The position numbers were made by a program, and so were the translations under genes. Positions 59,477-64,000 of a stretch of DNA of 64,000 bases are shown here, in pieces; the first letter of the stretch is position 1, and each line of letters begins with the position of its first letter. The notes under the pieces were generated by a model that ran no database searches, was not told the DNA's origin, and worked only from the letters and a program-made list of their open reading frames with translations. Source of the DNA: Escherichia coli (GTDB lineage: Bacteria; Pseudomonadota; Gammaproteobacteria; Enterobacterales; Enterobacteriaceae). The stretch is taken from the NCBI RefSeq assembly GCF_045037415.1, contig NZ_CP173438.1; one strand, written 5' to 3'.

Positions 59477-60202
59477 TCAGAAAAGAGAAGATTGCTGTGG
59501 AATAGCCGGAACTGCTCCGATCTCTGGAAGCGTTTTACGTAAGTCTTCCCACAGGGTATGTACCAGTTCCGGGGCCTGGGCAATATCTGGCGTATGTAAA
59601 AAAAGATAAGGCGTAGTGGTCTGATGCCACTGCGCTAATTTTTGTAACCAGACCTGAAATAATTCCCGGTTTTGCGTCATATCATCACTACCGATAAAAC
59701 GGATCAGTGGATTTTTCGCCGTCAGTACAGCATGTACCGGAACTTTAGGTTTTTTTCGTTGAGCGTAGCGAATAGCTTCACTGTGTGGACGTGCTGCATG
59801 AACCGGGCGGCTGTCTAAAATCACCCGATTAACGCCGCGCTGATGTAAACCGCGATTAAGCGTTTGTTCCTCTTCCCCTTTGGCGAAAAACTGTGGATGG
59901 CGGACTTCCACACCATAATTAAATTCGCCGGGAAGAGAATCGAGAAAATGCCAAAGCGCAGGCAGCTCCCGTGGGCCGAATGTGGCAGGCAGTTGCAGCC
60001 AGTATTGTCCAATGCGCGGAGCCAACGGTGACATGCGGGTCAAAAATTCAGTCACTAAATCATCGCAATGCCGTAATGCTGCCTGATGCGAAATAGTCGC
60101 CGGAAACTTAAAACAGAAGCGGAAGTCATCTGTGGTCTGCTCACGCCAGCGCAGGACAACCTCGGGTTTCGGCAGGGCATAAAGCGTGGTGTTACCCTCC
60201 AC
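59477..60202 (-). CDS. yecE: YecE (DUF72), 5' end replaced by prophage B; no in-frame ATG, stop at 60260-60262 upstream in frame
   Basis: 241 codons from GTG at 60202 match YecE from ..VEGNTTLYALPK; the first roughly 30 codons of K-12 YecE (recalled length 272 aa) have no counterpart. Confidence 0.8.
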   Translation of the reverse strand: MEGNTTLYALPKPEVVLRWREQTTDDFRFCFKFPATISHQAALRHCDDLVTEFLTRMSPLAPRIGQYWLQLPATFGPRELPALWHFLDSLPGEFNYGVEVRHPQFFAKGEEEQTLNRGLHQRGVNRVILDSRPVHAARPHSEAIRYAQRKKPKVPVHAVLTAKNPLIRFIGSDDMTQNRELFQVWLQKLAQWHQTTTPYLFLHTPDIAQAPELVHTLWEDLRKTLPEIGAVPAIPQQSSLF

Positions 60203-60228: not shown

Positions 60229-61542
60229 TTAACTTACTGATTTTAATAAGCCTCTGGTGTCACTTTGGTGACTATGGGGCATCATTGGGACATAATCTGT
60301 CAGCTTCTGATTCAGCATTGCGATCTGTTCTGCATTGCTGTCAGTCATCCATGCTCCGTATACATTGAATACCATCTGGGCACTTGCATGGCCCATCTGG
60401 CTGGCAATGAAGCTTGGGTTTGCTCCGGCAGATAATGACCAGCACGCATAAGTGTGTCGTGACTGGTATGCCTTTCGATGCCTGATCCCTGCACGCTTAA
60501 TGGCTGTTTCCCATGAGTCACCTACAGAATCGACTTTGTAGACAAAACCTACCTGTTCGCTTTTTCTAACCACTTGAGGGTTAAACACGAAAGTACATTC
60601 ATGGTTCACTGAACGTCCATATTCACGTAGTTGCACCTTGATGTTGTACTGCTTACCCAGTCTTGTCATTTCAGCCTGATTTTTCAGGACACTGATAGCG
60701 GGCTGGATAAGGTGCACAACCCTGTTTGTGCTTGCTTCAGTTTTCGGTAGAGTGAACTCACCAAGTTTCGTATAATTGCGCCTGATGGTAATTGTTCCTG
60801 CCTTCAGATCGATATCTTCCCAGGCCAGGGAAACCAGTTCACCGTGACGCATTCCTGTGTACACAGCCAATGACCACAGGTTTTTCGTCTGCTGATGTCG
60901 GCAAGCATCTATCAGGCGAATAAATTCGTCACGAGTTAGCGGATCTGGCTCTGCCCTGGCTCTTTTAAGAGGCTTAATTCCCTGGAAGGGATTTGCTTCT
61001 AAGTAACCGTGATCTGCAGCAAACTGAAACATTCCAGCGATTGTCGTCATGTAATAATTTACAGTAACGACGCTCCGTCCTTTTGCTGCTGCTTTGTTTT
61101 TCGTTGAATTCTGATACCCGGTAAGCAAATCTTTCCTGATATACAGCAATTCCTCTTTGGTTACCGATGACACCAGTCTACTGCCTCCAATTTTCGGAAC
61201 CATCGTTCTTGCAACGGATTCATAGCGATTGAATGCATTTGCAGAGATTTCCATTCGTTTCAGATCCAGCCACTTTTCTTCAAGTTCCTTCACCGTAATT
61301 TCTTTTTTACTTACCCCAAAAGCCTGAAGGTTGGGGGAGTCAGGGAACTGTGCAGCATAATCAAAGCTTCCTGTGCGGATGGCAAAACATACTGATGTCC
61401 GCAGTTCCCCGGCGATCTTCCTGTTCTTGGCAGTGTCAGGGACACCAAGATTTTCCCTGACACGTTTACCTTTAAAATTAAACCAGATGCGTAATGTGCC
61501 GCCGTGGTTTTCGACGCCTGTTGGATATTTGACTTTATCCAT
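60229..61542 (-). CDS. int: phage integrase (tyrosine recombinase), 3' end abuts/overlaps yecE 5' region
   Basis: 437 aa; N-terminal arm-binding-like domain and C-terminal catalytic region with conserved R..H..R..Y context. Confidence 0.85.
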   Translation of the reverse strand: MDKVKYPTGVENHGGTLRIWFNFKGKRVRENLGVPDTAKNRKIAGELRTSVCFAIRTGSFDYAAQFPDSPNLQAFGVSKKEITVKELEEKWLDLKRMEISANAFNRYESVARTMVPKIGGSRLVSSVTKEELLYIRKDLLTGYQNSTKNKAAAKGRSVVTVNYYMTTIAGMFQFAADHGYLEANPFQGIKPLKRARAEPDPLTRDEFIRLIDACRHQQTKNLWSLAVYTGMRHGELVSLAWEDIDLKAGTITIRRNYTKLGEFTLPKTEASTNRVVHLIQPAISVLKNQAEMTRLGKQYNIKVQLREYGRSVNHECTFVFNPQVVRKSEQVGFVYKVDSVGDSWETAIKRAGIRHRKAYQSRHTYACWSLSAGANPSFIASQMGHASAQMVFNVYGAWMTDSNAEQIAMLNQKLTDYVPMMPHSHQSDTRGLLKSVS

Positions 61543-61597: not shown

Positions 61598-61834
61598 TCA
61601 CCTGGGTTGTTTGTTTTTCATTGAGGCGACCCAGGCATCTATTGCTTTTCTGTTATACATACATTCACTGGAAGGCTTTGGATTACCGTCTGGTGATACG
61701 TGAATATACTCTCTTCCAACCATCCAGCATTCTTTCCGGGCCCGAAGAATTGTGCCTGGTTTGAGCCCGGTAATTGCGATAAGAACGCTTTCACAAACCC
61801 ATTCATTGGGAGCCAGTTGAATCACATTGCCCAT
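61598..61834 (-). CDS. xis: putative excisionase
   Basis: 78 aa ORF immediately upstream of int. Confidence 0.55.
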   Translation of the reverse strand: MGNVIQLAPNEWVCESVLIAITGLKPGTILRARKECWMVGREYIHVSPDGNPKPSSECMYNRKAIDAWVASMKNKQPR

Positions 61835-61842
61835 GTATTACC

Positions 61843-61989
61843 TCACACAACACTCAGCCCACGGCAGTGGCAACACACTTCAAACATTCGCTTCACAACT
61901 TCACGACAGTAGAAGCCGTCAACATCTCGCGTCAGGTCATAGCGATTGCCGTAACGCTGGTGGACCCATCGTTCAAATGCTTTATTCAT
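61843..61989 (-). CDS. small Cys-rich protein (48 aa, CCHC cluster)
   Basis: Hand-translated; ATG 3 nt after upstream stop; below ORF-track cutoff. Confidence 0.4.
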   Translation of the reverse strand: MNKAFERWVHQRYGNRYDLTRDVDGFYCREVVKRMFEVCCHCRGLSVV

Positions 61990-61992
61990 TCT

Positions 61993-62235
61993 TTACTTCC
62001 TTTTTATGGCTCGTAATTTTTTCAGGTGCTTTTCCTGCTCAGTGTCCGCGAGAATTTTGCGGTACTCCTGGTGGTCAATATGTTCGAACAGGCAGTTTAA
62101 CTCACCAATGCGTACCCGCCCGGATCGTCCGTCCATCCGTCGAAAGAACACTGAGTGCTCAGTGATGCGAGTAATCACCACGGGGTATCCGGCTCTGTCC
62201 GTGTATATCTGACCGCGTTGAATCAAAGCGAACAT
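61993..62235 (-). CDS. hypothetical early protein (80 aa from ATG at 62235)
   Basis: ORF track 61993..62289 with internal ATG closely following upstream stop. Confidence 0.5.
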   Translation of the reverse strand: MFALIQRGQIYTDRAGYPVVITRITEHSVFFRRMDGRSGRVRIGELNCLFEHIDHQEYRKILADTEQEKHLKKLRAIKRK

Positions 62236-62239
62236 GTGG

Positions 62240-62323
62240 TTATCCCCAGCGGCAAATCGAATACACCACCAGCGCCACCGCCATCGCAATTCCTACCGTT
62301 GTTAATGCTTCAGGCCAGGTCAT
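62240..62323 (-). CDS. 27-aa hydrophobic peptide [27 protein letters not shown] (single predicted TM helix)
   Basis: Hand-translated; ATG overlaps upstream stop (ATGA); GGAGG 9 nt upstream. Confidence 0.4.
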
Positions 62324-62664
62324 CGTAAAATATCCTCCACGCTTATCAGTCCGTTCCGCTCCAGATAACTCATCGCCTTATCCGGTAATTTGCAGTCTGG
62401 CTTCGCTTTCCTCAGTTGCCAGGTTAACTGCTTTACCAGCATGGTTAACTCATCGACCAGACGCTGATATCCCACTGGTTTGTATTCATGCAATTTACCG
62501 GCTGGCTCTGCTACCAGCGATACCAGTGCGATTTCCAGAACAGCAATATCCATCTTATATGTGCGGATGATGTCATGGTCGATTGTGCCCGGTATGCACA
62601 GTCTCTGTGCTTCAATAGTCTCCTCTGCGTGAGCTATTAACTGCTCTCTGGTAAAAGTCGTCAT
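62320..62664 (-). CDS. hypothetical early protein (114 aa), divergent member of paralogous family
   Basis: ORF track; shares MTT.T.E start and ..IALVSL.AEP motif with the two paralogues upstream. Confidence 0.6.
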
Positions 62665-62827
62665 GCCGTAGCCCCTTCTTGATATTTTTCAAACCAGAAC
62701 ACAACCGGCTCTGCTTCCAGCGATACCAGCGCAATCCGTGCCAGTTCCATTTGTTCACCACGGGTAAGCCCGTTTTCAAGCGGATTTTTAATGAACAATT
62801 CAATACGTTCTTTGGTAATAGTGGTCA
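62660..62827 (-). CDS. 55-aa protein [44 protein letters not shown]..., stand-alone copy of the N-terminal module of the 136-aa paralogue
   Basis: Hand-translated; AGGAG RBS; ATGA overlap with downstream gene. Confidence 0.5.
62700..62827. repeat. copy 1 of about 125-bp imperfect direct repeat (about 88 percent identical to 63388-63514)
   Basis: Aligned by eye. Confidence 0.7.
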
Positions 62828-62838
62828 TGTGTTACTCC

Positions 62839-63102
62839 TTAACCCGCAGTGCTTTCAACTGATGAGGGGAACAAAATCTTTTCATCAAACCCTGCATTCA
62901 TATCATGGACAGCAACACACCAATCCATTGACGAACGATTATCAAGAGCCTCCATGATTTCATCCATGCGGCGCAGGTCATACAGGTAAATGCTTTTATC
63001 GCCAATGGTGTAAAAACCAATTTTTTTCGGTGATGGGCAGCGATCAAGAACGTCCTGTAATTCGTTCAACCATGCCCGTTCTTTTTTTGTTAAAGTTGCC
63101 AT
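62839..63102 (-). CDS. hypothetical early protein (87 aa from ATG at 63102)
   Basis: ORF track 62839..63213; internal ATG with AAGGAGAGTGA RBS just after upstream stop. Confidence 0.5.
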   Translation of the reverse strand: MATLTKKERAWLNELQDVLDRCPSPKKIGFYTIGDKSIYLYDLRRMDEIMEALDNRSSMDWCVAVHDMNAGFDEKILFPSSVESTAG

Positions 63103-63103
63103 A

Positions 63104-63514
63104 TCACTCTCCTTTCCCATGAAGCATAGCGGCGCGGCAGGCGTTCCAGCCTGTAGCGTATGCAGCCGCTTTGCTGCTGCCTTCAACTGGCGCATCCTGC
63201 CAATACATTTCATCCGGCACTACCGGCGCTGGCAAGGCAGCGTGATAGTAGAGTGGCATAGTTTTGTACAGTGGTTCGCCAGGACTTCCGTCAACCTGAT
63301 TCCATTCTTCAACCCAGGCATCAACAACCGCTTTGCTGGTTGATACATGTTCTTCTGAATCTACATTTTGTCCTGATATACAGAACATAACTGCCTCTGC
63401 TTCCAGCGATGCCAGAGCAATTCGTGCCAGTTCCATTTGTTCGCCACGAGTAAGTCCGTTATCAAGCGGATTTTTAATGAATAATTTGATACGTTCTTTG
63501 GTTATAGCGTTCAT
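63104..63514 (-). CDS. hypothetical early protein (136 aa), N-terminal module [40 protein letters not shown]
   Basis: ORF track 63104..63556; ATG at 63514 with AAGGAGAGTGA RBS. Confidence 0.55.
   Translation of the reverse strand: MNAITKERIKLFIKNPLDNGLTRGEQMELARIALASLEAEAVMFCISGQNVDSEEHVSTSKAVVDAWVEEWNQVDGSPGEPLYKTMPLYYHAALPAPVVPDEMYWQDAPVEGSSKAAAYATGWNACRAAMLHGKGE
63388..63514. repeat. copy 2 of about 125-bp imperfect direct repeat
   Basis: Aligned by eye. Confidence 0.7.
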
Positions 63515-63515
63515 C

Positions 63516-63881
63516 TCACTCTCCTTTGATGCGAATGCCAGTAGCGCGGATTGCATCGATGACTTCAGAAACTTTGTATGCCATTACCGTTTGGTAATCA
63601 TCGTGAAAATCTGTTCGATGAAGCATGCTGCTACGTTCCGGGAGCGATATTTCCCGAGCATCCAGTTCCTTAACGCGCTCCTCCAGTTCGTAGACCCTGC
63701 ATTGTTCTCTATCATCAATCAGATATAACCCAAGACATTCGCTTTCTACCCAACCGCCAAAATCATGATCGTAACGCTCACATGAAAACTCACCGTCACC
63801 GTCCTTTGTTGGAATGGTGTAACTATCTAATGGGCCACCATATGTCGGCACATTTCCCAATGTTGGATGCTCAATCCACAT
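63516..63881 (-). CDS. hypothetical early protein (121 aa)
   Basis: ORF track. Confidence 0.5.
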   Translation of the reverse strand: MWIEHPTLGNVPTYGGPLDSYTIPTKDGDGEFSCERYDHDFGGWVESECLGLYLIDDREQCRVYELEERVKELDAREISLPERSSMLHRTDFHDDYQTVMAYKVSEVIDAIRATGIRIKGE

Positions 63882-64000
63882 GAAAAATGCACGTCCGGTT
63901 ATTGGGCAAATATCTGGCCGCCATTGGTTACGAACAGCCTTGGTTTCGGATAATTCTTCAGCGTGTTGTTTTACTTCCTCAAGCTCAACTCTCAGCTTCC

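Follow-up and report, generated by a model that had tools for sequence, protein, structure and literature searches.

The closest described relatives of the genes reported here are eaA of phage P22, which encodes a protein of 317 amino acids (aa), and hkaE of phage HK620. Both are read leftward and located between xis and the Ea22 or recombination genes. P22 EaA is listed as "Unknown" in function (PMC4837284). Better characterized is Ea22 of phage lambda and the Shiga toxin (Stx) phages (Ead_Ea22, PF13935), which has a short N-terminal part, a helical oligomerising coiled coil and a flexible connection to C-terminal domains that are portable and can be swapped, DUF551 among them (PMC10834534). 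A pro-lysogenic effect was measured for Ea22 (PMC7093339). The DUF551 protein YfdS of E. coli CPS-53 is reported to influence peroxide tolerance and, together with YfdQR, replication initiation when over-expressed (PMC4776307). The mosaicism of the lambdoid phages arises by homologous and homeologous recombination (PMC2327257). In this study, three small genes for proteins of 136, 55 and 114 aa were compared with these systems. They are part of a prophage at the end of a 64,000 nucleotide (nt) stretch of the E. coli contig NZ_CP173438.1 (assembly GCF_045037415.1), in the following called the window.

The three genes are likely to be short members of the EaA family which were shuffled by recombination at conserved sequence boxes, while their N-terminal hairpin module is conserved as protein. 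Phenomenon and family are both known, the latter without an assigned function, and the locus does not represent a new kind of system. A first-pass annotation of the window had described a common N-terminal module and had explained it by module duplication; the module was found as described and the interpretation is supported, with a refinement of how the copies came together.

Shared module and segmental build

The 136-aa gene (63104-63514), the 55-aa gene (62661-62828) and the 114-aa gene (62320-62664) are all encoded on the minus strand and match the PHROG families 5117 (full length, E 5e-22), 3323 (E 2.4e-18) and 660 (E 2.5e-42), respectively. Between the N-termini of the 136- and the 55-aa protein, 37 of 44 residues are identical (BLASTP, E 2e-25). 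On the DNA level, 111 of the 126 nt of codons 1-42 agree (88%), which is in accordance with the roughly 88% over 125 bp reported in the first-pass annotation, and a repeat finder detected the pair as a repeat of 146 nt with 86% identity (D1). The similarity ranges from the ATG to codon 44-45, whereas only the Shine-Dalgarno sequence is common upstream of it; it is thus not confined to ribosome binding site (RBS) and start, a possibility that had been raised against the module. The two N-terminal regions (heads) differ in 12% of the nucleotides; of the codon changes, 8 are synonymous and 7 non-synonymous. The 55- and the 114-aa protein share 19 of 54 residues (BLASTP, E 4e-6), with one insertion of 11 and one of 2 residues. 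A direct BLASTP comparison of the 136- and the 114-aa protein was not significant. Using hmmscan, the N-termini of all three proteins were found to match the same positions of the PHROG profiles 60, 660, 5117 and 3323; in phrog_60, each match starts at position 116 and ends between 165 and 227. In addition, a box of 29 nt, ATTGCGCTGGTATCGCTGGAAGCAGAGCC on the coding strand, could be identified in all three genes with 83-90% identity (repeat D3). Based on these comparisons, the similarity of the module in the three proteins is far beyond chance.

The 87-aa gene (62839-63102, minus strand) between the 136- and the 55-aa gene belongs to another PHROG family (1714, E 1e-50). Its likeness to the neighboring genes is limited to the RBS and the start MATLTKKER (repeat D2), and its description as non-homologous was therefore correct. 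This start is one codon different in length from the start box MTTITKER of the module. Some proteins of the 114-aa type begin with MATLTKEERFTKEQL (P0279). The start box may be common to more proteins than the module itself.

For the 136- and the 114-aa protein, AlphaFold2 models were built with family alignments. The model of the 136-aa protein has helices at residues 6-14, 23-38, 61-74 and 113-131 and strands at 41-46, 58-60 and 83-87, with a long linker in front of the confident C-terminal helix 113-131. Its mean predicted local distance difference test score (pLDDT) is 76 and its predicted template modeling score (pTM) 0.39. For the 114-aa protein, helices were predicted at residues 6-26 and 30-51 (pLDDT above 90), 63-87, 95-103 and 109-113, with residues 56-62 being disordered (mean pLDDT 78.5, pTM 0.43). 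Since the hairpin is present in both models, the shared module is predicted to be an antiparallel two-helix hairpin of approximately 42-54 residues, the second helix of which ends in a conserved sequence called box 2. A sequence search of the PDB with both proteins and a module profile resulted in nothing below E 0.1. The structural comparison suggested by the first-pass annotation was performed with Foldseek for both models against the PDB and for the 136-aa model against BFVD; no match was significant, and only generic helical hairpins of 44-46 residues were obtained.

The three proteins combine the module with different parts. The 55-aa protein consists of the canonical module (residues 1-42) and a tail of 13 residues. 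In the 114-aa protein, a divergent and longer hairpin (residues 1-54) is followed by a short disordered linker and a C-terminal helical box. The 136-aa protein comprises the hairpin, a small alpha/beta segment (VDAWVEEWN), a Pro-rich linker (PAPVVPDE) and the MYWQDAPVEGSSKAAAYATGWNACRAAML helix, and ends with HGKGE in front of the stop codon.

In a tblastn search of 50,697 phage records with the 44-residue module, 92 records were found to contain it. It forms the N-terminus of P22 eaA, of HK620 hkaE and of genes annotated as EaA, DUF550- or DUF551-containing, and proteins bearing it are named Eaa, DUF550 or DUF551 in the protein databases. The module of P22 EaA and HkaE was found with 84-90% identity over 42-44 residues, and the 55- and the 136-aa gene share 84-98% with the module copies of phages. 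An exhaustive search (E <= 1e-3) revealed 688 clusters at 50% identity that are related to the 136-aa protein, by which a large and unstudied family is delimited.

With respect to the features of the EaA group, the N-terminal module of about 42 residues is present in canonical form in the 55- and the 136-aa protein and in divergent form in the 114-aa protein. The location is also that of the group, namely the leftward early region from xis to the Ea22 or recombination genes on the strand of int. The C-terminal DUF550 (MazG-like pyrophosphohydrolase) or DUF551 domain could not be detected, as no Pfam match was obtained for the 136- and the 114-aa protein at E <= 10, including the DUF551 profile (PF04448; PDGWISCSERMP..HWMPLPEPP). 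The 55-aa protein is too short for either domain. The Ead_Ea22 signature (PF13935) did not match the 136- and the 114-aa protein in the Pfam scan, in which the 55-aa protein was not included; it is the signature of the upstream neighbor. The Pfam scan of the 87-aa protein was likewise without a match, and NCBIfam and PADLOC gave none for any of the seven proteins of the locus. With the matched PHROG families being of unknown function, these scans did not reveal any well-characterized housekeeping family, which had been named as a finding that would speak against an accessory locus.

The window genes are therefore similar to P22 eaA and HK620 hkaE in their N-terminal module, place, leftward reading and box-delimited build. 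In contrast to these and to the DUF550 and DUF551 proteins of RefSeq, the 136- and the 114-aa protein are without C-terminal Pfam domains, and the forms found are head-only (55 aa), head with middle (136 aa) and head with a different C-terminal box (114 aa). In the window, three of them occur in tandem, whereas the canonical module was found at two places in only 2 of the 92 phage records. The three genes appear to be ordinary short forms of the EaA group and not full-length EaA. Operon and design principle are shared with Ea22, but neither the coiled coil nor the C-terminal domain of Ea22 is similar in sequence to any of the three genes. YfdS also belongs to the accessory proteins of prophages and is a member of the wider DUF551 group. 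Since the window genes are without a DUF551 domain, the phenotypes of YfdS cannot be transferred to them.

The proteins of the family are composed of short segments joined at conserved boxes, and the same boxes flank many unrelated inserts. The start box M-T-T-I-T-K-E-R is followed by a variable stretch, box 2 (..ARIALASLEAEPV) and one of many unrelated middles. Next are ..PLYxAPPAPVVPEE, a short variable stretch and ..GWNACRAAML. After this, some proteins end (..GKGE-stop), whereas in others a linker rich in Ser and Asn and ..GNSPVTPDGW.. lead to a C-terminal domain, which is DUF551, DUF550 or another one. With head, VDAWVEEWN middle and AAML helix, the 136-aa protein represents a complete short form. 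A number of independent short forms (120-131 aa) have the same ending (..AAML(Q/H)GKG(G)E-stop), and P0121 is a long form of the 136-aa protein which runs on into DUF551. In the 114-aa protein, the head is directly joined to a C-terminal box that also ends the long forms P0218, P0333, P0344 and P0352. At least five alternative heads were found on the same C-terminal part, with the joint always at the box. Furthermore, the chimeras P0123, P0128 and P0133 carry N-terminal regions of the Ead/Ea22 type (MSKIDYQALR...) joined to the middle of the 136-aa protein at a ..SL(E/D)AEPV box, which suggests that the Ea22 and EaA families exchange parts via the same joint.

Boxes as joints between segments

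The copies of box 2 are located at 63389-63433 in the 136-aa gene (ELARIALASLEAEAV), at 62703-62747 in the 55-aa gene and at 62503-62550 in the 114-aa gene (all minus strand, repeat D3). The latter two mark the left and the right end, respectively, of a deletion that was found in the sister prophage L082, which occupies the same site of the chromosome. Its gene order is Ea22-like, 136 aa, 87 aa, one gene of 101 aa, DUF4222, 48 aa, xis and int. Compared to the window, the flanks are 100% identical around an exact gap of 203 nt (62513-62715), which begins within one of the two box-2 copies and ends within the other. The D3 copies in the 55- and the 114-aa gene are likewise 203 nt apart. The resulting fusion protein of 101 aa (P0293) consists of the 55-aa head and the 114-aa body. 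At the crossover, identity is restricted to runs of 13 and 9 nt inside the 29-nt box. Window and L082 are thus a natural before/after pair, in which a box-to-box deletion can be followed at single-nucleotide resolution.

The positions at which homology ends were analyzed in 60 E. coli records, evenly spaced down the ranking of 2,628 matching records. The two box-2 regions of the 136- and the 55-aa gene represent 8% of the query and contain 28 of the 78 internal endpoints (13 and 15, respectively). For boxes and gene boundaries together (23% of the query), the number is 70 of 78. The nominal P value of 5e-12 is indicative only. Several records match only in an island of 38-45 nt (95-100% identity) over box 2 in otherwise different genes.

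The position of the joint could be determined with a gene for an HNH endonuclease of 121 aa in E. coli STEC384 (NZ_CP091029.1; L083:2183-2889). The last 16 residues of this protein are as in the 55-aa open reading frame (ORF), and the gene overlaps the same 114-aa gene by ATGA, as the 55-aa ORF does. The pair is located in a different prophage region, after the replication genes and beside a ParDE toxin-antitoxin pair. Since the HNH gene has the same tail, the tail of the 55-aa protein belongs to the 114-aa unit, with the joint directly after box 2. If a mosaic joint carries a free-standing HNH nuclease gene, the nuclease could itself promote local recombination.

Homology endpoints also concentrate at the gene boundaries, where a second type of box was identified. 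It is located at the junction of the Ea22-like and the 136-aa gene (63494-63527; ..AAAGGAGAGTGAgATG..), with related copies at the 136/87 junction (63082-63115) and upstream of the 55-aa gene (62808-62841; all minus strand, repeat D2). The boundary box (AAAGGAGAGTGAnATG) contains the K-G-E-stop codons with which one gene ends, and these codons also form the Shine-Dalgarno sequence for the gene that follows. Many of the short EaA forms as well as the Ea22-like gene end with ..KGE-stop.

The excess of endpoints at the boxes, the box-to-box deletion and the head swaps at the box indicate that the boxes act as recombination joints. This is similar to the mosaic evolution described for lambdoid phages (Susskind-Botstein linkers; Juhala et al., 2000; Martinsohn et al., 2008), in which blocks of high identity also end at conserved patches, divergence increases towards the joint and deletions occur between direct patch repeats. 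Compared to the linker idea, the joints found here are located inside coding sequence, at the ends of a selected protein module, and not only at gene boundaries.

To analyze the conservation of box 2, the DNA of the canonical head was compared in 36 distinct versions. The amino acids of the box are almost invariant, whereas the diversity at third codon positions is 0.31, compared to 0.12-0.13 in codons 2-27. At codons 42-44, the diversity increases abruptly at all three codon positions. Since the synonymous sites are free to vary and the residues are nearly invariant, the box is conserved at the protein level and not as DNA or RNA; the head residues are under purifying selection. The divergence rising towards the joint resembles the "shoulders" of homeologous recombination in lambdoid phages (PMC2327257). 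The near invariance of box 2 suggests that it doubles as a homology patch, at which phage and host recombination systems would exchange or delete the flanking segments. The locus is a clear case of the rebuilding of lambdoid accessory genes, in which a module under purifying selection also serves as a recombination patch.

Origin, status and possible role of the genes

The 55-aa gene was found in 19 loci of IMG/VR. In all 19 it overlaps the downstream 114-aa gene by ATGA, and in 18 of 19 the 87-aa gene precedes it, where it was found 13 nt upstream. Of these loci, only L004 and L005 have the 136-aa gene upstream. Among complete E. coli genomes, 319 contain at least 80% of the cassette of 87-, 55- and 114-aa genes and 128 at least 80% of the 1,365-nt query with all four genes. 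Any part of this query is present in about 2,470 of 5,426 genomes, which is nearly half. This comparison of gene neighborhoods, which had been proposed with the first-pass annotation, indicates that 87-55-114 is a conserved cassette and that the 136-aa gene is an independent neighbor. The cassette would travel as a unit, its 55-aa ORF being a head that passes into the leader of the 114-aa gene just behind box 2, and the 136-aa gene would be a separate short form of head, middle and AAML helix that was placed upstream.

The status of the short ORFs can be interpreted differently. The 55-aa ORF could be a non-functional recombination scar and the 136-aa ORF a truncated DUF551 gene, so that only the mosaic process would be meaningful. 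We regard this as doubtful, although it explains several observations. The tail of the 55-aa protein is also the end of the unrelated HNH protein in front of the same 114-aa gene, the ORF is deleted in L082 and its relatives with the locus being undisrupted, the 136-aa ORF is flagged as incomplete by the Prokaryotic Genome Annotation Pipeline (PGAP), and its long form P0121 runs into DUF551. However, no disrupted copy of the 55-aa ORF was found in the 19 IMG/VR loci that carry it (21 copies including the window and L001), and the ORF has a strong Shine-Dalgarno sequence and an ATGA overlap that suggests coupled translation. Alternative heads on the same tail keep the frame (P0108 and P0117), and the head residues show the purifying selection described above. 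The end of the 136-aa protein is found in many independent short forms, which argues against a truncation. The 55-aa ORF is kept intact wherever the cassette occurs, yet it is dispensable in natural deletion variants, and it may be a head-only by-product of the joint.

The intact 136-aa ORF (L001:7623-8015 in an annotated genome) is annotated inconsistently: in some identical genomes it is given as two overlapping "incomplete" pieces, and in others it is apparently counted as one hypothetical protein. The PGAP label "DUF551 domain-containing, incomplete" on its first 42 codons is explained by the shared head and not by a domain. Consequently, the head should not be labeled DUF551 in annotations, nor should short forms automatically be taken for pseudogenes. 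In rare frameshift variants of 167-168 aa (P0263 and P0264), the 55- and the 114-aa ORF are fused, resulting in two heads in tandem, and in others (P0101, P0065 and P0131) the 55- or the 136-aa ORF is truncated. These variants of public assemblies could be real or sequencing errors.

A tandem duplication of one ancestral gene within this prophage, followed by divergence, would explain the three module copies of the same orientation within 1.2 kb and the likeness of their RBS and start regions (D2). It is very unlikely, since the heads of the 136- and the 55-aa gene differ by 12% of their nucleotides and the 136-aa gene is mostly apart from the linked cassette. In addition, its head allele (MNAITKERIKLF..DNG) is also found on quite different bodies, and at least five heads, among them that of the 114-aa protein, are interchangeable on the same C-terminal part. 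Already the head data suggest that the window copies are not each other's closest relatives. Head divergence, linkage pattern and the occurrence of the head allele on other bodies point to a mosaic assembly, and local duplication was rejected. Of the module duplication initially assumed, the presence of several homologous copies remains, but not their origin in place.

A function of the 55/114 pair, or of the cassette as a whole, as a toxin-antitoxin or anti-phage defense module is even less probable. The genes are small, overlapping and located in an accessory region, and the 114-aa gene was found beside the ParDE pair in one other prophage. On the other hand, the four proteins have no PADLOC or NCBIfam match and those of 136, 114 and 87 aa no Pfam match. 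Natural variants have one gene in place of the pair, which would be hard to tolerate for an addictive pair, and the genes are part of a repressed early operon and not behind an evident promoter active in the lysogen. The least probable explanation is that the box is a cis-acting DNA or RNA element (protein-binding site, regulatory RNA or recombination signal) with the protein similarity being secondary: the 38-45-nt islands of 95-100% nucleotide identity in otherwise unmatched genes (H156-H159) and a weak hairpin overlapping the box would fit, but such a constraint was rejected because synonymous variation is higher in the box than elsewhere in the module, the residues are nearly invariant, no Rfam match was found, promoter and terminator sites do not exceed the chance level and the box does not correspond to Chi.

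For the shuffled short EaA genes, a role can be proposed with low confidence only. The hairpin may be a handle by which variable C-terminal effector parts oligomerise or dock to partners; these parts would be accessory domains that are expressed early after induction and are non-essential for phage growth. Far more speculative, and in our view improbable, is that the EaA-type proteins of one phage co-assemble via the head, with the 55-aa protein as a translationally coupled capping or decoy microprotein that tunes the longer effectors. If true, the family would represent plug-and-play domains for host manipulation or counter-defense on one handle.

Several points weigh against the interpretation of these genes as shuffled short forms with a conserved hairpin. 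The pTM values of both models are low, and the fold searches yielded generic helical hairpins only. The nominal P value of the endpoint analysis overstates independence, because the genomes are related and only the outer ends of joined BLAST pieces were counted. In some genomes, the 136-aa ORF is given by PGAP as two pieces of a pseudogene, and instead of being a working gene, the 55-aa ORF may be a harmless scar. The literature on EaA, HkaE and DUF551 heads yielded annotations, the work on Ea22 and the over-expression of YfdS, and no tested function was found in it. As no functional test was found for any member of the family, the role of the hairpin is one that we infer.

The prophage locus

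The end of the window is the left arm of a prophage that is inserted at the 3' end of yecE (DUF72), with all genes on the minus strand. The genes for the integrase (60229-61542) and the excisionase (61598-61834) are followed by a 48-aa ORF (61843-61989) and a DUF4222 gene (61993-62235), and then by the 114-, 55-, 87- and 136-aa genes. The immediate upstream neighbor of the 136-aa gene in the same operon is the Ead/Ea22-like gene. Its 3' part is located at 63516-64000, and it continues beyond the end of the window; in identical annotated genomes, it encodes 271 aa with PF13935. In such a genome, the order on one strand is int, xis, 48 aa, DUF4222, 114, 55, 87, 136 and Ea22-like, and the row extends to a gene for a LexA-family repressor. 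The genes running leftward from this repressor correspond to the layout of an early-left operon, so that the setting given in the first-pass annotation appears to be correct. The same 2.5 kb are 100% identical in many complete E. coli genomes.

The spacing between the genes is 1 nt (136/87) and 10 nt (87/55), followed by the 4-nt ATGA overlap (55/114). A promoter and terminator scan did not reveal sites above chance level, and in Rfam no match was found with permissive thresholds. The genes would be co-transcribed from the early leftward promoter.

The integrase gene abuts the 3' end of yecE (59477-60202). In an annotated genome (L001:3978-6043), the coding sequences of yecE and the integrase overlap by 19 nt, which suggests that the attachment site is located within this end of yecE. 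Phage phiP27 has an int-xis pair with 93.5% identity to the one found here. The DUF4222 gene is flanked by an inverted repeat of 25 nt (61939-61963 and 62266-62290) with 80% complementarity and 302 nt between its arms.

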